Origin: Clostridia bacterium
Lineage (GTDB): Bacteria > Bacillota > Clostridia > Christensenellales > Borkfalkiaceae
Direction of reading: 5' to 3'
NCBI GenBank assembly: GCA_017504795.1
Contig: JAFVQM010000011.1
Coordinates: 22,842 to 86,841 of the forward strand
DNA length: 64,000 nt
The notes beneath the pieces are model-generated. The model was not told the origin of the DNA and searched no databases. It worked only from the letters and a program-made list of their open reading frames with translations. Below, piece after piece: positions 2,928 to 54,245 of this stretch; positions within the stretch are counted from its first letter, which is position 1; each line of letters opens with the position of its first letter. The position numbers were made by a program, and so were the translations under genes.

Positions 2928-2954
2928 ACGTTTTATGACAAATTTTTTGATTTT

Positions 2955-2993
2955 TTTTAAGAAAAAAACTCCCGCTTTAATCAAACGAGAGTT
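2955..2993 (-). terminator. intrinsic terminator (copy a of a duplicated 32-nt hairpin)
   Basis: Minus strand: AACTCTCG-tttgattaaag-CGGGAGTT then TTTTTTT. The stem has a G-U pair on the minus strand but a C-A mismatch on the plus strand. Confidence 0.7.
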
Positions 2994-3020
2994 AAATTTT
3001 GTATGGTTGTTTTTTAATTT

Positions 3021-3108
3021 ATAAAGCCTATTGCAACTTAATTAAGACACTAGAAACAAGCAAGACAAGGCTCGCCTAGACGAGTGGTTGCAATAGACCT
3101 TTTTGGTG
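3021..3108. repeat. modular repeat family, partial unit (no 3' terminal repeat)
   Basis: aaagcctat..ttaagacactag..caagacAAGGCTCG-[ctcg cctaga cgag hairpin]-..GACCTTTTTGGTg. Shares boxes with the units at 8693 and 24481. Confidence 0.7.
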
Positions 3109-3136
3109 TTATTATAACGAGAGTTTATTTTTATAT

Positions 3137-3209
3137 GTATTTTAAGACGCCAGTTTGGGTATTAGGCTAGGCTCACTTTGGCGATAGGCTGAGTTAGACC
3201 TTTTTGGTC
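3137..3209. repeat. modular repeat family, degenerate unit
   Basis: Starts gtATTTTAAGACGCC (same motif as the 3' end of copy 52899-53025). Contains AGGCT boxes and ends GACCTTTTTGGTC. Confidence 0.55.
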
Positions 3210-3213
3210 AATG

Positions 3214-3244
3214 AAAAAACTCCCGCTTTAATCAAACGAGAGTT
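3214..3244 (-). terminator. intrinsic terminator (copy b, 32/32 identical to 2962-2993)
   Basis: aaaaaactcccgctttaatcaaacgagagtta. The minus strand gives the stem plus T6. Confidence 0.7.
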
Positions 3245-3257
3245 AGTTTTAACCTGT

Positions 3258-3387
3258 ATTTTAAGGGCTTAGTTACAAGTTAGGCGAGGCGTTTGGGTTT
3301 TTGCGGAAGGGAGCGACCTTTTTGGTCGTAGGAATTTCGCAAAAACACAAAGAACAAAGCATAACGCCGTAAATAAGACCTTAAAAT
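3258..3387. repeat. modular repeat family, complete 130-nt copy with 19-bp terminal inverted repeats
   Basis: 5' ATTTTAAGGGCTTAGTTAC (3258-3276) versus the reverse complement of 3369-3387, ATTTTAAGGTCTTATTTAC (17/19). Internal helix 3295-3305/3338-3348 encloses hairpin cgaccTTTTTggtcg (3314-3328). Overlaps the stop codon at 3381-3383. Confidence 0.8.
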
Positions 3388-8632: not shown

Positions 8633-8663
8633 AAAAAAACTCTCGTTTATTAAGCGAGAGTTT
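8633..8663 (-). terminator. intrinsic terminator (AAACTCTCG...CGAGAGTTT stem)
   Basis: Minus strand: aaactctcg-cttaataaa-cgagagttt followed by TTTTTTT. Confidence 0.7.
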
Positions 8664-8692
8664 ATTTGTTAAATTTGCCTATTATAACTTAC

Positions 8693-8820
8693 ATTTAAGG
8701 GCTTAGTTACAAGCAAGACAAGGCTCGCCTAGACGGGTGGTTAAATAGACCTTGTTGGTCATTGCAGACACACGACGACGGCAGAAACGAAGTACTCGCG
8801 CCGTAAATAAGACCTTAAAT
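8693..8820. repeat. modular repeat family, complete 128-nt copy with terminal inverted repeats
   Basis: 5' ATTTAAGGGCTTAGTTAC (8693-8710) versus the reverse complement of 8803-8820, ATTTAAGGTCTTATTTAC. AAGGCTCG plus ctcg-cctaga-cggg hairpin, then GACCTTGTTGGTC. Overlaps the stop codon at 8815-8817. Confidence 0.8.
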
Positions 8821-10176
8821 AATTTCTGGAAGTGATGCAGCGGCTATCGACTGCCCTACGCGCTTATTAGACTCGTCAGGCATAGAAAGGCTAATAGACG
8901 AATATTTTGGGAATTCTTCGTCTAATACTTTTCTTGCGTTATCTAAAATGATATCGCCACCTTTACCAGACGTTACGCGCCCTAAAAGTAGCGCGTGCTT
9001 GATATCGTAAAATTCGCTGTAATATGCGAGCGTGTAACCAAGATAAATACCTATGCACTCGTAGATTTTTTTAGCCATTTCATCGCCGTCAGCCATAAGT
9101 TTTTGAATAACTTTCAACTTTTCAGCAGGAGATAAACCGTCTTCAAACTTAAAGCCTGCGTTTTCGGCAAGTTTAATAACGCTGTCTTGCGAGAAGTATT
9201 TTACACCGCAACCGTAGTCGCCCGACCACTCGTCAACCATAGCGTCTTTATTATAATCAACGGGTGCAAAAGCGAGTTCGTTAAGCCAACCTTCTAAACA
9301 GCCTTCGCGGTTGATGTAGCCTACCGCTTCGCTAGTGCCCATAGCGATACCGAGTACTGCGGTATCTTCAAGGTCGATAGCGCCTGCGAGCGCTGTAACG
9401 TCACCGTCGTTAGCAACTTCGATAGGTGCGCCTATTTCTTTTGCGATATCTAAATACATCGTTTTAACGTGCTTTTCAAAATCTTCTTCGGGAACTTTTA
9501 TAAAAAGCGACGCTACCATTATTTTATTGTCAACGTAAACGCCGGCAGAAGATACACCGATAGCGTCAACCCTTGGCATTTTGCTTGCTGCGGTCTTCAT
9601 AGACTCCATAATGCCGTTATACTGATAGTGCCAGTCAGAATTGAGTTTGGGGTGCCAAACTACTTCTTCACTGTAAACTACTTTACCGTCGATAACGGCG
9701 GAAACCTTTCTATCTGAACCGCCCGCGTCAAAACCGATACGGCACCCGTCTAAATGACCGCCAACTTTAAGCGAGCAACTCTTTTTTTCAGGGAACTCTT
9801 CATAAGAAACTTTAACTACTTCGAACGGTCTTTCATATACGCCCGACATAAACTTTTCGTCAAATGCGCGTTCGCCCGTTTTTGAGTATGCCGATTTAAT
9901 TCTATTATAGATATAATCGTCACCAGCGATATAAATTTTATAACCGCCCGCTACCCACAAAATAGTTTTGATAATTCTTTCGGCTACGCCGTAGTTTTCT
10001 TCTTTTTTATTTTCGTCTGCAAAAATTTGAAGGTCGTAACAAAAGTTATAACCTTTATTTCTTTCAACGCAAATTTTTAATAACTTGCTTTCTTCTTTTT
10101 CAACGGCTTTTCTAAAATCGTTGAGTTTAACGATCATAGGATAGTAATTTTTATCGTAGATAGGTGTGAATTTCAT
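8815..10176 (-). CDS. ROK-like / ASKHA-superfamily sugar kinase family protein
   Basis: GFDAGGSD and ANDGDVTALAGA motifs. Start moved to MKFTPIY, which is preceded by GGAG. Confidence 0.55.
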   Translation of the reverse strand: MKFTPIYDKNYYPMIVKLNDFRKAVEKEESKLLKICVERNKGYNFCYDLQIFADENKKEENYGVAERIIKTILWVAGGYKIYIAGDDYIYNRIKSAYSKTGERAFDEKFMSGVYERPFEVVKVSYEEFPEKKSCSLKVGGHLDGCRIGFDAGGSDRKVSAVIDGKVVYSEEVVWHPKLNSDWHYQYNGIMESMKTAASKMPRVDAIGVSSAGVYVDNKIMVASLFIKVPEEDFEKHVKTMYLDIAKEIGAPIEVANDGDVTALAGAIDLEDTAVLGIAMGTSEAVGYINREGCLEGWLNELAFAPVDYNKDAMVDEWSGDYGCGVKYFSQDSVIKLAENAGFKFEDGLSPAEKLKVIQKLMADGDEMAKKIYECIGIYLGYTLAYYSEFYDIKHALLLGRVTSGKGGDIILDNARKVLDEEFPKYSSISLSMPDESNKRVGQSIAAASLPEII

Positions 10177-10249
10177 AAGTGTCTCCATAAAACAAAATTA
10201 TTCGCTTATATATTAGCATAATCTTTTACAAAATAAAAGGCTTTTCACG

Positions 10250-22406: not shown

Positions 22407-23054
22407 TTAATCTTTGAAAAACGGTAGTCGAACGACAATGGGAACTATTATAAATAAAAGGGCGTAATTTACTATGCAGTTAAAAATTTGCCCCTTGAAA
22501 ATTAGGCGGTATAAAACGTAGCCTAAAAAGGAAACGTCACCCCCGAAAAGTTCCTTAACGTAGTTGATAACGGCGGTTGAAAAACCCATTTTATAGTTGT
22601 AAAAATAAAAGCCGGTTGAGTTTATTAAAACCGTTCCAAATATAAAAGAAGATATGCATATTAGCAGTAATTTTACGGCTAACCCACCTTTGAATTTGAA
22701 GTTTATAAAGTAAAATATAACGCCTGATAGTAGCGCTGTAACGCCCGAAGTCAAGCCAACCCAAGGCATATAGGTATACCCCCACGAGTTTATAATAAAC
22801 CCGATAGCGTCACCTATCACGCACGCGCAAAAACCACTGCCACCGCCTATGAGTATCCCTGATAACATAGATAGTAGCAAGGTTATTGAAAACTGCACGT
22901 CTGAAAACTTAATTTCAAGTAGCGTATTGCAAACGATAAGTACTGCCGTTATAACCGCGATATACGCTATTTTTTTCGTGGTGGTTTTGCCTTGTATAAT
23001 AGGCGAAAACACAAACTTTTCCCACAATTTTTTACCGCTATTATTTTTTTGCAT
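22407..23054 (-). CDS. folT: ECF transporter S component, folate family (FolT-like)
   Basis: 215-aa multi-TM protein directly downstream of a THF riboswitch. Confidence 0.7.
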   Translation of the reverse strand: MQKNNSGKKLWEKFVFSPIIQGKTTTKKIAYIAVITAVLIVCNTLLEIKFSDVQFSITLLLSMLSGILIGGGSGFCACVIGDAIGFIINSWGYTYMPWVGLTSGVTALLSGVIFYFINFKFKGGLAVKLLLICISSFIFGTVLINSTGFYFYNYKMGFSTAVINYVKELFGGDVSFLGYVLYRLIFKGQIFNCIVNYALLFIIVPIVVRLPFFKD

Positions 23055-23102: not shown

Positions 23103-23206
23103 ATTAAAGCGGACGCGCCCTCCCACCGCAACGGCTACCGCCGTTTTCGTTTAAGGACGACATCCCATTCCTTAACACTTAACGCAATCGGGCTACTCTT
23201 TAATTT
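23103..23206 (-). promoter_or_regulatory. THF (tetrahydrofolate) riboswitch aptamer
   Basis: Minus strand: UUAAAGAGUAGcccgauuGCGUUAAGUGUuaaggAAUGGGAUGUCGUCcuuaaACGAA...GCGCGUCCGCUUUAA. Matches conserved blocks of the E. siraeum THF riboswitch as recalled, with compensatory stem changes. Confidence 0.85.
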
Positions 23207-24480: not shown

Positions 24481-25055
24481 TTTGCCTATTTTAACTTGTA
24501 TTTAAGGGCTTAGTTACAAGTATATCAAGGCTCGACACAAAGCGTGGTTGACACTAACCTTTTTGGTTATCGAAGTTCTACCTAATAAAGCCTATACTAA
24601 CCGATATTTTAAGACCTTAGAAGCAAGCAGAACAAGGCTCGCGAAGTTTACGGGGTGAGATAAACCTTTTTGGTTACCGAAGTTTACTTAATAAAGCCTA
24701 TACTAAGCGATATTTTAAGGGCTTAGTTACGAGTATATCAAGGCTCGACACAAAGTGTGGTTGACACTAACCTTTTTGGTTATCGAAGTTCTACCTAATA
24801 AAGCCTATACTAAGCGATATTTTAAGACCTTAGAAGCAAGCAGAACAAGGCTCGCAAAGTTTACGGGGTGAGATAAACCTTTTTGGTTATTGAAGTTTAC
24901 TTAACAAAGCCTATACTAAGCGATATTTTAAGGGCTTAGTTGCAAGTATATCAAGGCTCGCAAGGGCTTGCGGACAACACTAACCTTGTCGGTTGTGGTG
25001 GTCGTAAGACCGAAGCAGTTAACGAAGATATACGCCGTAAATAAGACCTTAAAAT
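24481..25055. repeat. tandem array of 5 units of the modular repeat family (A1-B1-A2-B2-A3 + 3' terminal repeat)
   Basis: Unit starts at 24481, 24587, 24693, 24800 and 24906 (106-107 nt). The A/B dimer period is 213 nt. A1 vs A2 is 98/100 identical and B1 vs B2 is 96/100. The last unit ends with gtaaataagaccttaaaat (25037-25055), overlapping the sigE stop at 25049-25051. Confidence 0.9.
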
Positions 25056-37656: not shown

Positions 37657-37683
37657 AAAAAAACTCTCGCCTAGCGAGAGTTT
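37657..37683 (-). terminator. intrinsic terminator (AAACTCTCG...CGAGAGTTT stem) abutting the first in-frame ATG of the patatin ORF
   Basis: Minus strand: aaactctcg-ctagg-cgagagttt, then TTTTTTT, then ATG. Confidence 0.65.
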
Positions 37684-46244: not shown

Positions 46245-46934
46245 ATGGCTTACAATATTTCAACTATGCATATTTGGAGATTTTTTAACGGCGAGTGCGA
46301 ATGCCCTATGTGCAAACTTAAAAAAAAGACTGAGTGCGACATAGCCGAAAGTTATCTATCCGAAGCCGTTATGGAAGACGCCGAGCGTGAAAAGGTTAAT
46401 AAATACGGTTTTTGTAGAGACCATTACGACCTTTTGTATTCGGGTAAAAACAAACTTGGGCTTGCGCTACAAGCGTCAACTAGGCTTTGGAAACTCGATA
46501 TGAAAATAAAGCCCGTTGACGTAAAGCAAGCGGTTAAAACGGCAAAAAAACTTAGAGAAGAAATATCCGATTGTATTATTTGCCGTAAAATCGAGTTTAA
46601 TATGGGGCGTTATTTTGAAACGGTTGCAAGGCTTTATGGTGACGATGCTAGATTTAGAGAGCAATTTAAGTCAGTTAAAGGGTTTTGCTATCCCGACTAT
46701 ATAAGGTTAGTTGAAAACGCGCCTAAGGCAAAGAGTTATGCAAAAGAGTTTTTACAAGTTTTATACGAAAAGCAAAAAAGTAGCGCCGAAGAAGTTCAAA
46801 AAAACCTAAAAGATTTTACTATGGCATTTGACTATCGCTCGTCGTCACTACCGCCAAAAAGCGCGTCTTTATCACTAGTTCAAGCACGCGTTAAATTCTA
46901 CGGCGAAAAGCCGTCACTCCCTGAAAGAAAATAA
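46245..46934 (+). CDS. hypothetical Cys-rich protein (229 aa)
   Basis: CECPMC...C and CIIC clusters. No family recognised with certainty. Confidence 0.5.
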   Translation: MAYNISTMHIWRFFNGECECPMCKLKKKTECDIAESYLSEAVMEDAEREKVNKYGFCRDHYDLLYSGKNKLGLALQASTRLWKLDMKIKPVDVKQAVKTAKKLREEISDCIICRKIEFNMGRYFETVARLYGDDARFREQFKSVKGFCYPDYIRLVENAPKAKSYAKEFLQVLYEKQKSSAEEVQKNLKDFTMAFDYRSSSLPPKSASLSLVQARVKFYGEKPSLPERK

Positions 46935-46963
46935 TAAAAAAGCGACTTATAAGTCGCTTTTTT
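46928..46963. repeat. 36-nt direct repeat 1 containing a bidirectional terminator
   Basis: aaaataataaaaaagcgacttataagtcgctttttt, identical to 48930-48965. Also encodes the last codons (QKSDL*) of the LysR gene. Confidence 0.85.
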
Positions 46964-47792
46964 GATTTCTTAAAAATTCTATAAAGTTTTTAGTTTCGCC
47001 CGTACAAGTGGCTGGGTTATAGTAGCAGTAAACAACGTATTTTTCATTAAAATCAACAACGTCAAGATACTTTATATGTGGATAGTCTCTATCGTGATTT
47101 TCTCTTCCAAGCCCTATGCCTACGCCCGCTTTTACAAACCTTTCATAACAGTCGTTATCGTTGGCGTTTATCACAACGTTAGGATAAAACCCCGCGCTTT
47201 CACACGCCCTAACTAACGATTTATGCATATTGCTGTTTTCGCCCCACGATATAAACTTCTCGCCTTCTAAGTCTTTTAGTTTTAATTTTTTTGAAGTATA
47301 TATACTTTGAGATACTTTCATTTTAATATTCATACTAAGAAGTTCAAAACCACCGTATCCTACGTATTTATCCCCCTTTTCGTCAATCACGATATCGTAC
47401 TTTTGATAATCGCTTTCTAAAAAGTCAAACACAGTCTTAAAAACGATATTAGGATATTTTTGACTGTACTTTATAATATAGTCGGTAACGTTGCTTCTAA
47501 CTGCTTTTACAAGCATTTTAATCTCGCGAACGGCGTTACTTTTAGATATGTCGTAAACCGCAGAATCAATTTCAAAAAACGCCGAAGTAACCGCATTTTT
47601 AAGCCTTTCACCATTTTTGTTAATGGTGATTTTATTTGCCGTTCTATCAAATAGTTTAACCCCTAGTTCGCTTTCAAGCCTTTTAATTGATGCGGAAACC
47701 GAAGTAGTAGGCACGCCGTACTTTTCAGCGGTTTTCGTAAAACTTTGATTTTTTGAAGTTTCTAAAAAATATCTTAATTGAAGTAGTTCCAT
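46947..47792 (-). CDS. LysR family transcriptional regulator
   Basis: MELLQLRYFLE...FTKTAEKYGVPTTSVSASIKRLE HTH. Confidence 0.85.
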   Translation of the reverse strand: MELLQLRYFLETSKNQSFTKTAEKYGVPTTSVSASIKRLESELGVKLFDRTANKITINKNGERLKNAVTSAFFEIDSAVYDISKSNAVREIKMLVKAVRSNVTDYIIKYSQKYPNIVFKTVFDFLESDYQKYDIVIDEKGDKYVGYGGFELLSMNIKMKVSQSIYTSKKLKLKDLEGEKFISWGENSNMHKSLVRACESAGFYPNVVINANDNDCYERFVKAGVGIGLGRENHDRDYPHIKYLDVVDFNEKYVVYCYYNPATCTGETKNFIEFLRNQKSDL

Positions 47793-48929: not shown

Positions 48930-48965
48930 AAAATAATAAAAAAGCGACTTATAAGTCGCTTTTTT
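48930..48965. repeat. 36-nt direct repeat 2 containing a bidirectional terminator
   Basis: Identical to 46928-46963. Confidence 0.85.
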
Positions 48966-48967
48966 TA

Positions 48968-49588
48968 TTATTCATCTTCTTCGGCAGAATTATAAAAATC
49001 GTCGTTTAATATTTGTAAAACTTCTTCGATTTTCGTAAGTAATTTATCCTTGCCATATCCCGTTTCTGCCGAAGTTGCAATAACTTTATCCATACCGATA
49101 GCAAGGTAATTACCTATTGATTTTACCCTTTCGTAAATTCTAGTTTTGCCTATTTTATCGGCTTTGGTGGCAACCACGGTAAAAGGTAGCGCGTAACTGT
49201 GAAGGTAGTTTATCATAGACAAATCGTCTTTCGTGGGGTCGTGGCGAATATCAACTAGCATAATAACGTGGTTAAGCGCCTTGTCTGACGCAAAGTACTC
49301 TTCCATTAGTTTTGCCCATTTTTTCTTTTCGCTATCCGATACTTTTGCAAACCCGTACCCTGGAAGGTCGGCTAGAATAAACTCGCCAAAGTCAAAGTAG
49401 TTTATAAGCCTAGTTCTACCTGGGGTAACCGAAGTTCTTGCAAGCCCTTTTTTGTTTGCAAGCGCGTTTATTAGCGAACTTTTGCCAACGTTAGACTTTC
49501 CGCACACGGCAATAATAGGTCTATCGGATACCAAAAAGTTTTTACTGTCGGCAACCGAAGTTATGAATTTTGCATTTTTAATAATCAT
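48968..49588 (-). CDS. engB: ribosome biogenesis GTPase YsxC/EngB
   Basis: GKSNVGKSSLIN G1 motif and DLPGYG. Confidence 0.9.
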   Translation of the reverse strand: MIIKNAKFITSVADSKNFLVSDRPIIAVCGKSNVGKSSLINALANKKGLARTSVTPGRTRLINYFDFGEFILADLPGYGFAKVSDSEKKKWAKLMEEYFASDKALNHVIMLVDIRHDPTKDDLSMINYLHSYALPFTVVATKADKIGKTRIYERVKSIGNYLAIGMDKVIATSAETGYGKDKLLTKIEEVLQILNDDFYNSAEEDE

Positions 49589-52830: not shown

Positions 52831-52861
52831 AAAAACTCTCACTTTCCGTGAGAGTTTTTTT
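52831..52861. terminator. bidirectional intrinsic terminator (AAACTCTC...GAGAGTTT stem)
   Basis: aaaaactctcac-tttcc-gtgagagttttttt. Confidence 0.75.
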
Positions 52862-52898
52862 AATTTATTGAATTTATATTAGCCTTTTTTATGTGACC

Positions 52899-53025
52899 TT
52901 TTAAGGCATATTAAACGAGTTAGACGAGGCGTTTGCGATTTTTTGGAAGGGAGCGACCTTGTTGGTCGCAGGAATTTCAAAAAACGCAAAGAACAATGTA
53001 TAACGAAGTTTAAGACGCCTTAAAA
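52899..53025. repeat. modular repeat family, complete 127-nt copy with variant terminal inverted repeats
   Basis: 5' TTTTAAGGCATATTAAAC (52899-52916) versus the reverse complement of 53008-53025, TTTTAAGGCGTCTTAAAC (16/18). The body is homologous to 3258-3387, with helix 52935-52945/52978-52987 around gcgaccTTGTTggtcgc. Encodes the last 5 codons and the stop of clpX. Confidence 0.8.
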
Positions 53026-54245
53026 ATAACTTCGGGTTTCTTATTACCTTTTATAACTTCTTCGTCTATTATAACTTTTTCGGCGTTTTCGCTTGGGATA
53101 TCGTACATACAGTCAAGCATAACGTTTTCAAAAATAGTGCGTAAGCCACGAGCACCAGTTTTTAATTCAATTGCCTTTTTAGCAATTTCGTAAACGGCAC
53201 CGTCGGTAACTTCTAGGTCGCACTCGTCCATACCGATAAGTTTTTTATACTGTTTTACAAGTGCGTTTTTAGGCTCAGTCATAATCTTTACGAGCGCAGT
53301 TTCGTCAAGCGGATCTAAACAAACGGTTATTGGCACTCTTCCAACAAATTCGGGAATTAAGCCGTATTTGGTTAAATCGCCGGGCTGAACGTCGTTAAGT
53401 ACGGCAGTATTACCGCCATTTTTACCGTTAACGTTACCGCCAAAACCTAGACTAGACGCGTCCTTTCTCTTTTCAATAATCTTGTCAAGCCCAACGAACG
53501 CGCCACCGCAAATAAATAAAATGTTGGTGGTATCTATTTGAATAAGTTCTTGTTGGGGGTGCTTTCTTCCGCCTTGCGGTGGAACGGACGCTACCGTTGA
53601 CTCAATAATTTTAAGTAGCGCTTGTTGAACGCCTTCACCAGAAACGTCACGCGTGATGGATACGTTTTCGCTTTTTCGTGCAATTTTGTCAATCTCGTCG
53701 ATATACACGATACCGCGTTCTGCACGAGCCACGTCGTAATCGGCGTTTTTGATAAGTTTAAGTAGAATATTTTCTACGTCTTCCCCGACGTAGCCTGCCT
53801 CGGTGAGCGTTGTCGCGTCAGCCACGGCAAAGGGAACGTTTAATATCTTAGCAAGCGTTCTTGCAAGCAAGGTTTTACCCGAACCCGTAGGGCCTAAAAG
53901 CAAAATGTTAGACTTTTCTATCTCGGTAACGTCGTCACTTTCGCCTTTGAGTTTGGCGTTTATTCTTTTATAGTGGTTGTAAACCGCAACCGATAAAACC
54001 TTTTTGGCCTTATCTTGACCAACGATATAGTTATCGAGTTCTTCTTTTATTTGCTTGGGTTTTTTAAGTTCTACTTCTTCTACTTCAACTAAATTTTCTT
54101 CTTCTAAAATGCTGTTGCAAATTTCCAAACACTCGTCACAAATATAAAGTCCGTTAGGACCTGCAACAAGTTTATTTGCAAGTTCTTTGGGTTTACCGCA
54201 GAAGGCGCAATATAGTCCGTTATTTAAGTTTTCGTTGTTAGCCAT
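53010..54245 (-). CDS. clpX: ATP-dependent Clp protease ATP-binding subunit ClpX
   Basis: N-terminal zinc finger CAFCGK...[12 protein letters not shown], and an IGF-type loop region. Confidence 0.95.

Follow-up and report, generated by a model that had tools for sequence, protein, structure and literature searches.

The 130-nt segment at positions 3258-3387 raises the question of what kind of element it is: a mobile piece of DNA, a structured RNA maintained by its host, or the product of local duplication. The window in which it lies, by which is meant the whole stretch of DNA analysed (64,000 nucleotides of a contig from a Clostridia bacterium), has a G+C content of 39% with a GC skew that is negative throughout, and its genes include sigE, spoIIGA, clpX, clpP, minD and feoB, which together identify its source as a sporulating member of the Clostridia. 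From the letters alone, a first-pass annotation had interpreted the segment as a modular, multi-copy element resembling MITEs or pneumococcal BOX elements, an interpretation which the present analysis supports, with the corrections given below.

Copies of the element in the window

The mini-hairpin ACCTTKTYGGT has 10 exact matches in the window, on the + strand only, and it is common to all units as had been claimed (10/10). These 10 units lie at four loci and have the same + strand throughout, in agreement with the single orientation reported for them. A profile of the unit (nhmmer) run over the window found those 10 units and no others, recovering also the two partial units that had been proposed at 3021-3108 and 3137-3209. 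With its filters off, a covariance model found four complete copies in the window (3259-3387, 8693-8821, 24926-25055 and 52899-53026) plus truncated units, and no further copy. The complete copies, which are 128-131 nt in length (n = 4), score 92-121 bits in the forward direction as against 17-23 bits in reverse, so that the orientation of the element is well defined despite its palindromic sequence.

The 19-nt termini of the type copy, 3258-3276 (+) and 3369-3387 (-), were confirmed both in their positions and in their match (17/19 identical). The terminus pattern is matched 7 times in the window against 0.09 expected, and the further copies for which the same termini had been described (at 8693, 24925-25055 and 52899) are complete units by the covariance model. 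The AAGGCTCG box, previously attributed to most units, is present in 7/10 of those in the window. The earlier count of at least 10 units also holds; the estimate of about 1.4 kb, or over 2% of the window, was too high, as the summed length of the units is ~1.2-1.3 kb (1.9-2%). The units and the genes that they adjoin are as follows.

3097, 3198, 3316, 8749, 24557 (+): starts of ACCTTKTYGGT, exact pattern scan
24664, 24770, 24877, 24983, 52956 (+): remaining starts of ACCTTKTYGGT, exact pattern scan
3021-3108 (+): truncated unit with left arm and apex; nhmmer 3019-3107
3026-3037 (+): linker module GCCTATTGCAAC ahead of truncated unit 3021-3108; module pattern
3137-3209 (+): truncated unit, left arm and apical hairpin present, right arm lacking; nhmmer 3114-3220, partial covariance match 3169-3240
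3258-3387 (+): complete hairpin unit, type copy, subtype I; covariance model 116.6 bits
3381..4673 (-): DUF1015 gene (Pfam); stop TAA 3381-3383 within the right arm of the type copy, offset 0
8677-8688 (+): linker module of the subtype II unit 8692-8821; module pattern
8692-8821 (+): complete hairpin unit, subtype II; covariance model 111.4 bits
8815..10188 (-): gene; stop TAA 8815-8817 within the right arm of unit 8692-8821, offset 0
24484-24924 (+): array of four truncated units; repeat analysis, nhmmer and covariance model
24499-24580, 24606-24685, 24712-24793, 24819-24898 (+): truncated units of the array, two subtypes alternating
24925-25055 (+): complete closing unit of the array; covariance model 121.2 bits
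25049..25747 (-): sigE (NCBIfam); stop TAA 25049-25051 within the right arm of unit 24925-25055, offset 0
52898-53026 (+): complete unit, subtype I, with co-diverged arms; covariance model 91.7 bits
53010..54245 (-): clpX; the frame enters the right arm by 3 codons, stop TAA 53010-53012

Truncated units keep the left arm and the apex and have lost the right arm. In the array 24484-24924 each of them consists of the linker module, the left arm, the apex and ~16 nt of the right arm, and the array with its closing unit (24499-25055) repeats every 106/107 nt, with a super-period of 213 nt (97% identity). A segmental duplication of ~251 nt is also seen within 2951-3250. It comprises a terminator and a truncated unit, and the two copies of the terminator (2967-2993 and 3218-3244) do not differ from each other.

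Structure and covariation of the hairpin

All four complete copies in the window fold as one long hairpin, with z-scores of -2 to -8 against shuffles. When the complete elements of related loci are included, 26/27 of those extracted are 128-131 nt long, and the RNA folding energy is lower on the + strand in 26/27 copies. Conservation was assessed in an alignment of 28 sequences. Its invariant positions are, from the left, the outer TTAA followed by TTAG, C, RAG and AGG of the left arm, then GACCTT-T-GGT at the apex, and then AAC, a C and ATAA...TTAA of the right arm; the remaining columns are variable, yet the arms stay complementary. RNAalifold gives a single end-to-end hairpin of 35 pairs, with changes on both sides in 23/35. 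Paired cells amount to 93%, against 75% in column shuffles and 27-43% when the partners are slid, and the covariation score was reached by 0/500 shuffles. Conservation is strongest at the apex and the internal loops, not at the ends, the conserved parts being the apical stem-loop GACC-TTKTY-GGTC and asymmetric internal loops with RAGGC on one arm and AG-N-AAC on the other. The sequences of the arms diverge between copies with their complementarity kept, as seen on comparing GGGCTTAGTTAC/GTAAATAAGACC with GACCTTAGAAGC/GCTTATAAGG.

The element begins and ends as TTAAG...CTTAA, with the consensus ends TTTTAAGNNCTTAG... and ...ATAAGNNCTTAAAA, and the base of its stem is A+T-rich. With regard to the terminal inverted repeats of the first-pass annotation, the inverted ends (17/19) are real, but they form just the base of a hairpin of 128-131 nt, which covaries over its whole length, and are not simply transposase-binding ends. 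The variable insert that had been described as always self-complementary is not in general a local hairpin either, as in complete units this stretch pairs across the apex (columns 49-56 with 87-94). Outer and inner stem modules occur in differing combinations, an example being L022 and L026, which have a common inner part and different outer stems, and the units are therefore mosaics. The linker GCCTATWNYAAC is present on the distal side of most units; this module and the strict docking at TAA stop codons described below are additions to the earlier annotation. Two candidate roles for the linker were rejected. As an alternative pairing partner of the left arm it shows no covariation with that arm, and as a sigma-70 promoter it has no convincing -35 box, the promoter-like hits being only weak.

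The covarying stems, the invariant loop nucleotides and the tight length are points in favour of a functional structured RNA, either a regulatory or stabilising module of the 3' UTR or a protein-bound small RNA derived from it. The hairpins would then be a selected host RNA family, spread among genes by recombination, and not selfish DNA. This we consider unlikely. REPINs covary likewise without a proven RNA role (PMC3116915), and the mRNA strand is not marked out by the wobble pairs, since G-U and A-C cells number 19 versus 7 but the sites 7 versus 6, which is not decisive as to the strand that folds. It should also be mentioned that compensatory changes alone are no proof of selection, as template switching in a quasi-palindrome could give the same result.

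The ends bear on another explanation, namely that of a classical MITE, which arose by internal deletion from an insertion sequence with a DDE transposase (IS630/Tc1-like or IS5-like) and is cut and pasted into TA or TTAA with duplication of the target. In keeping with such an origin, TTAA borders the inverted-repeat ends at either side, and TTAAA-N2-3-TTTAA forms the join where complete units adjoin one another. However, arms that vary widely while remaining complementary are odd for the site of a sequence-specific transposase, and the strongest conservation is found in the wrong place for it, at the apex and internal loops rather than the ends. A classical MITE is thus also an improbable explanation, and further evidence on it is given in the following sections.

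Position at stop codons and orientation

The gene beside the right arm converges on the element in 20/23 evaluable clusters, and it is always the complete unit of a cluster which adjoins the stop codon. Where complete elements lie beside a long ORF, the stop is TAA in 19/19. The gene-proximal end of the element is situated on this TAA or at most 9 nt after it in all testable cases (19/19), the stop offset being 0 in 10 of them, with the TAA lying within the terminal TTTTAAG, and -5 to -9 in the other 9. Docking at offset 0 is seen in the window at the DUF1015 gene, gene 8815..10188 and sigE. As TAA accounts for 45/57 stops in the window, the choice of TAA is only mildly informative; the rule of element-to-stop distance is not a chance effect. 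The host stop is either kept, with the element 5-9 nt downstream, or provided by the TAA of the junction, and where the junction is in a different frame a TAA within the arm serves as the stop. For a classical MITE, this stop bias would be merely a preference for T-run/TA/A-run targets combined with purifying selection.

Read in the direction of the gene, the stop codon is followed by the hairpin(s), then by the linker and then by the intrinsic terminator. This fixed place of the hairpins, past the stop of the upstream gene and ahead of its terminator, is another point in favour of a functional RNA; the host genes themselves (sigE, clpX, clpP, DUF1015 and an unknown gene) are unrelated in function, which speaks against it. 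A recoding signal, made up of a slippery AAATTTT and the hairpin, was considered and dropped, as it has two sites only and the stop offsets vary. The locus L018 was likewise rejected as a clpX orthologue, its flanking gene being of ~630 aa with no long BLAST match.

The element strand is the C-rich strand in 23/23 loci, a single orientation for which the palindromic target of a classical MITE does not account. Every abutted gene is a leading-strand gene, so gene and replication orientation are inseparable here. The sole independent exception is provided by L001 and L002, where the element is upstream of a minority-strand gene, away from any stop, and is still on the C-rich strand.

Empty and filled sites

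Empty orthologous sites, which had been proposed as a check in the first-pass annotation, exist at clpX and clpP. The clpX site is empty in the related loci L084, L085 and L086 (ClpX 97-98% identical), which read ...ATTTTTAAAAAAGCAGTT TAA TAGGAAC followed by the terminator, or in codons ...ATT TTT AAA AAA GCA GTT TAA TAGGAAC. It is filled in the window, in L087 (JAZRKO01) and in L088, where ...ATTTTTAA is joined directly to GGCGTCTTAA... The codons of the filled allele are ...ATT TTT AA/G GCG TCT TAA..., running on into the hairpin (here and below, a slash marks the junction). The insertion point is three codons before the native stop, and the C-terminus of ClpX changes from KKAV in the empty allele to AS in the filled one, each directly before the stop. 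The gene-side TAA is pre-existing target DNA at both clpX and clpP, and at clpX so is the T run before it.

Turnover is evident at these sites. L087 and L088 have a subtype II unit exactly at the new clpX stop (TCT TAA/CCCATTATTTAC), and their older subtype I unit is cut to its last 34 nt. In L089, the ClpX of which is 91% identical, a tandem pair of units lies after the native stop (AGT TAA/TTTAAGCCC), which is an independent insertion at the same gene end. The clpP stop has its native, empty sequence in the window, L086 and L087, and is filled by a complete unit in L084 (AGA TAA/GCCTTTATAAAC). Gene 8815..10188 has an element only in the window and in L034 (95% identical protein), the latter with a different unit type and number, and no element was found in 48 more distant orthologue loci.

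On the distal side, the stretch that leads from the hairpin to the native terminator or ribosome-binding site is not the same as in the empty alleles. A TAA duplication plus 13-nt tail was considered as the distal junction and rejected, as its 8-nt match is reached by 22-28% of shuffles and is not significant. The native clpX target is TTTTTAAAAAA, and the A-tracts of a stop codon plus terminator naturally yield sites of this kind, which favours a classical MITE; against it, no direct duplication is demonstrable at clpX or clpP.

The sigE site is occupied in four species, with 5, ~2.3, 1 and 2 units respectively, and its elements persist across species that are only ~75% identical in DNA. Such persistence also fits a retained function and supports the functional RNA, as does the non-coding arm at clpX, which has co-diverged with the arm that turned coding. 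The patchy presence of the element among close relatives, and the fact that truncated, decaying units are common, point in the other direction. It was also observed that five independent short-read contigs (L029-L033, metagenome contigs with identical sigE) end in or beside the sigE array, where assemblies are broken by the repeat.

These sites also bear on whether any dedicated mobility is needed. Local tandem or segmental duplication, together with gene conversion between look-alike 3' regions with similar terminators, would accommodate the 213-nt super-repeat with its 97% identity, the 251-nt duplication of terminator plus unit, the look-alike terminators found beside elements (4/5 copies, see below) and the mosaic units, whose breakpoints lie at conserved boxes. 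It is nevertheless very improbable as an explanation, as insertions are found in many genomes and at genes that are unrelated and separated by 5-28 kb, the same gene end (clpX) has independent insertions at two positions, and the clpX terminator is unchanged in the empty alleles and so did not travel with the element.

Distribution among genomes and database searches

A pattern scan with one genome per species gave 27 loci. The unit profile matches 22/27 of these, from 11 species-representative MAGs which are labelled Christensenellaceae, Clostridiales or Clostridia and come from animal and human gut; further metagenome contigs also carry the element. The remaining 5/27, from unrelated phyla, have no profile or model match and are attributed to chance. 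The first-pass annotation had allowed for a simple local duplication confined to four loci, and the matching ends found at these 22 loci and in the metagenome contigs settle that point. Among related loci there are 36 covariance-model matches in at least 13 genomes, and distant orthologue loci have no element (covariance model on 17, unit profile on all 50). The MAG JAZRKO01 has ~91% DNA identity to the window and JAZUAK01 73-83%, while the metagenome contig ENA ERZ27256852 k141_19875 includes a stretch with 100% identity to the 6.7-kb sigE region of the window.

The repeat had been described as unnamed and belonging to no recognised Rfam family, and this was borne out. At gathering score, the sole Rfam match in the window is an unrelated THF riboswitch, and permissive scans (E up to 10) of two element loci gave chance-level matches well below the gathering scores. 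The lack of an Rfam match counts against a functional RNA. No match to the element was found in plasmids and phages (BLAST) or in viral contigs (pattern scan), and full-text literature searches gave no description of such a repeat in this bacterial group. The hairpin family is previously undescribed and is no local duplication. The family is new, and the kind of element is most likely a known one, a small non-autonomous mobile hairpin like REPINs, BOX elements or MITEs.

With regard to a mobilising enzyme, the earlier statement that the window has no transposase agrees with NCBIfam or Pfam scans of 17 window ORFs, in which neither a transposase nor a recombinase came up. No Y1 transposase ORF was revealed by a crude scan of 0.52 Mb of DNA for HUH/Y motifs, and tblastn of the 0.52 Mb with two IS200/IS608 TnpA query sequences gave no match. 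An autonomous element with the same ends, also suggested as a follow-up in the first-pass annotation, was looked for by a regex search for an ORF flanked by the inverted repeats of the element; none was found in the 0.52 Mb examined, nor was an insertion sequence with these ends, which is a further point against a classical MITE.

Neighbouring terminators and other features

Several other hairpins and structured elements were identified in the window.

52834-52856 (-): native clpX intrinsic terminator AACTCTCAC..GTGAGAGTT, also present in empty alleles and lying outside the putative mobile unit
23105-23202 (-): THF (tetrahydrofolate) riboswitch RF01831, 67 bits
54246-54365 (-): clpP-clpX intergenic region with four tandem ~24-nt hairpins, CAACTTTTTGTCGTAGACAAAAAAT, AACTTTGCCGTACGGCAAAAT, AACAATTCGGCGTAGCCGAAAT and TTACTTTTACCAAAGGTAAAAAT
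46928-46967 and 48930-48969: 40-nt terminator-like hairpin AAAAAAGCGACTTATAAGTCGCTTTTTT, two copies of 98% identity, 2 kb apart

Look-alike terminators of the form AACTCYC-loop-GRGAGTT occur at 2967-2993, 3218-3244, 8638-8662, 37662-37682 and 52834-52856 (5 matches against 0 expected). Four of the five adjoin hairpin elements and the copy at 37662 stands alone. The AACTCTC..GAGAGTT terminator was considered as a travelling part of the element and rejected, as it is present in the empty clpX alleles and has this lone copy at 37662. The G+C-rich stem plus T run of an intrinsic terminator is not a feature of the complete 128-131-nt hairpins; the terminator scan flags separate flanking hairpins and gives two weak matches inside the truncated unit 3021-3108.

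The THF riboswitch is located upstream of gene 22407..23054, the product of which has ECF transporter S-component Pfam domains. The four clpP-clpX intergenic hairpins are conserved in L086 and L087 and absent from L089 and L084, the latter having a hairpin element at its clpP stop. A LysR-type regulator and an ornithine cyclodeaminase-family gene lie between the two copies of AAAAAAGCGACTTATAAGTCGCTTTTTT. Downstream of clpX, a gene with Bro-N and Fic domains is present in L084 (2939-3793), L086 (2937-3791) and L088 (1815-2669) and not in the window, and L087 (JAZRKO01) has instead a small helix-turn-helix gene and an ORF of unknown function; at this spot, therefore, relatives differ both in their genes and in their repeats.

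Nature of the element and possible mode of movement

The explanation that we prefer, at a probability of roughly 0.55, is that of a small non-autonomous mobile DNA element, the replicating unit of which is a 128-131-bp imperfect palindrome that folds single-stranded into one long hairpin. It lands directly after TAA or a T-rich TTTAA at the extreme 3' end of a gene, upstream of the terminator, its movement presumably being catalysed in trans by an enzyme encoded away from the element. A single-strand DNA mechanism (REPIN/IS200-like) is favoured over classical cut-and-paste because of the strand and orientation rule together with the conservation of structure plus loop, and also because the gene-side junction is exact with no demonstrable direct duplication. 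Arrays may have grown by re-insertion at the regenerated TAA of the stop codon, by unequal recombination at the conserved boxes, or by both.

A more specific proposal, of which we are distinctly doubtful, is that of a stop-codon-homing single-strand DNA element of a new kind, which would use the lagging-strand template and be inserted directly 3' of a T-rich TAA by a putative enzyme. The distal TTAAAA of the element would pair with the target TTTTAA, and the target would become the base of the hairpin. This would explain the variable length of the T run on the gene side, as well as the deviations by which the distal side remains complementary, namely AATTAA/TTAATT in L006 and ATAA/TTAT at clpP in L084. 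Homing of this kind would also explain the single orientation and the absence of a clean direct duplication.

Whatever its mode of movement, an element between the stop codon and the terminator would, from its position, be transcribed with the upstream gene as part of its 3' UTR, unless termination occurs earlier, and the hairpin would begin inside the footprint of the terminating ribosome. By analogy, a REP-like action of the 3'-UTR hairpin as a stabiliser or processing site is plausible and probably applies here. A further possibility is that the hairpin may have been co-opted to sense or modulate terminating ribosomes.

The family adds an undescribed and abundant repeat to what is known of a poorly characterised group, the uncultured gut Clostridia (Christensenellaceae-like MAGs), in which core genes, among them clpX and sigE, have their C-termini and stop codons rewritten by small, apparently mobile hairpins. 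It explains breaks in short-read assemblies at element loci, and its variable unit number offers potential markers for strain typing. The strict docking and single orientation provide a system for testing single-strand, replication-coupled insertion by REPIN-like elements outside the Proteobacteria, and also the effect of a hairpin starting at the stop codon on mRNA stability or translation termination.

Comparison with known systems

The attC sites of integrons have RYYYAAC...GTTRRRY ends, cassette ORFs and a nearby integrase. The present element differs in its TTAAG...CTTAA ends, and its neighbours are housekeeping genes in conserved synteny.

IS200/IS605 elements and the miniature PATEs have a strand specificity tied to replication, insert just 3' of a short specific sequence without duplication and are recognised as folded single-stranded DNA. 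The exact junction of the element on the TAA side and its orientation rule are compatible with this, gene and replication direction being confounded. However, these elements possess a distinct subterminal hairpin at each end, whereas the present one is a single end-to-end palindrome, and no TnpA was detected in the 0.52 Mb.

MITEs which duplicate TA, such as RUP and Correia/NEMIS (relatives of IS630-type elements), are 100-160 bp in length with terminal inverted repeats, are often found in 3' UTRs, where they are co-transcribed, form long hairpins and can alter gene ends. The element is likewise short (<300 bp) and multi-copy with terminal inverted repeats. As regards target duplication, its gene-side junction is exact at TAA/TTAA and the candidate TAA duplication is not significant. 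It differs from RUP and Correia/NEMIS in having ends which vary and yet covary, in its one orientation and in that no direct duplication was demonstrated.

Pneumococcal BOX elements have the architecture boxA-(boxB)n-boxC, in which the internal module is repeated and one closing module pairs with the first. Their copy number varies between strains and their predicted folds are stable; to our knowledge, they have no transposase of their own. In architecture, which alone was compared, the arrays of truncated units closed by one complete unit follow the same A-(B)n-C plan, with n variable between orthologous sites, although here the iterated block consists of the left arm, apex and linker. We know of neither stop-codon docking nor a replication-locked orientation as a feature of BOX.

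REPIN systems have been described from Pseudomonas, enterobacteria and similar bacteria, where they are mobilised by RAYT tyrosine (HUH/Y1) transposases; the host of the present element belongs to the Clostridia. REPINs have inverted conserved ends and form a hairpin, the spacer of which is limited both in its length and in its pairing and often shows compensatory changes (PMC3116915). They are also extragenic, non-autonomous, arranged in higher-order clusters, persistent at their sites and mainly vertically inherited (PMC3116915). On these descriptions the element resembles a REPIN in being a hairpin of ~100 nt with two inverted conserved ends and a length-constrained, compensating spacer, as well as in its extragenic location, clusters, long persistence at sites and non-autonomous nature (PMC3116915). 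As defined in PMC3733652, the tag at the end of a REP is the tetranucleotide GTAG or CGTC. Neither of these is conserved at the ends of the element on either strand, and no RAYT was found by motif scan and tblastn of the 0.52 Mb. The element differs also in being best conserved at its apical loop instead of its ends and in its strict location at the stop codon. By analogy, the element appears to work most like a REPIN among known systems, with modular arrays that resemble BOX, and its unusual features are that it docks strictly at stop codons, that it remodels the C-termini of proteins and that its orientation is locked to the strand of replication, the last being confounded with gene direction.
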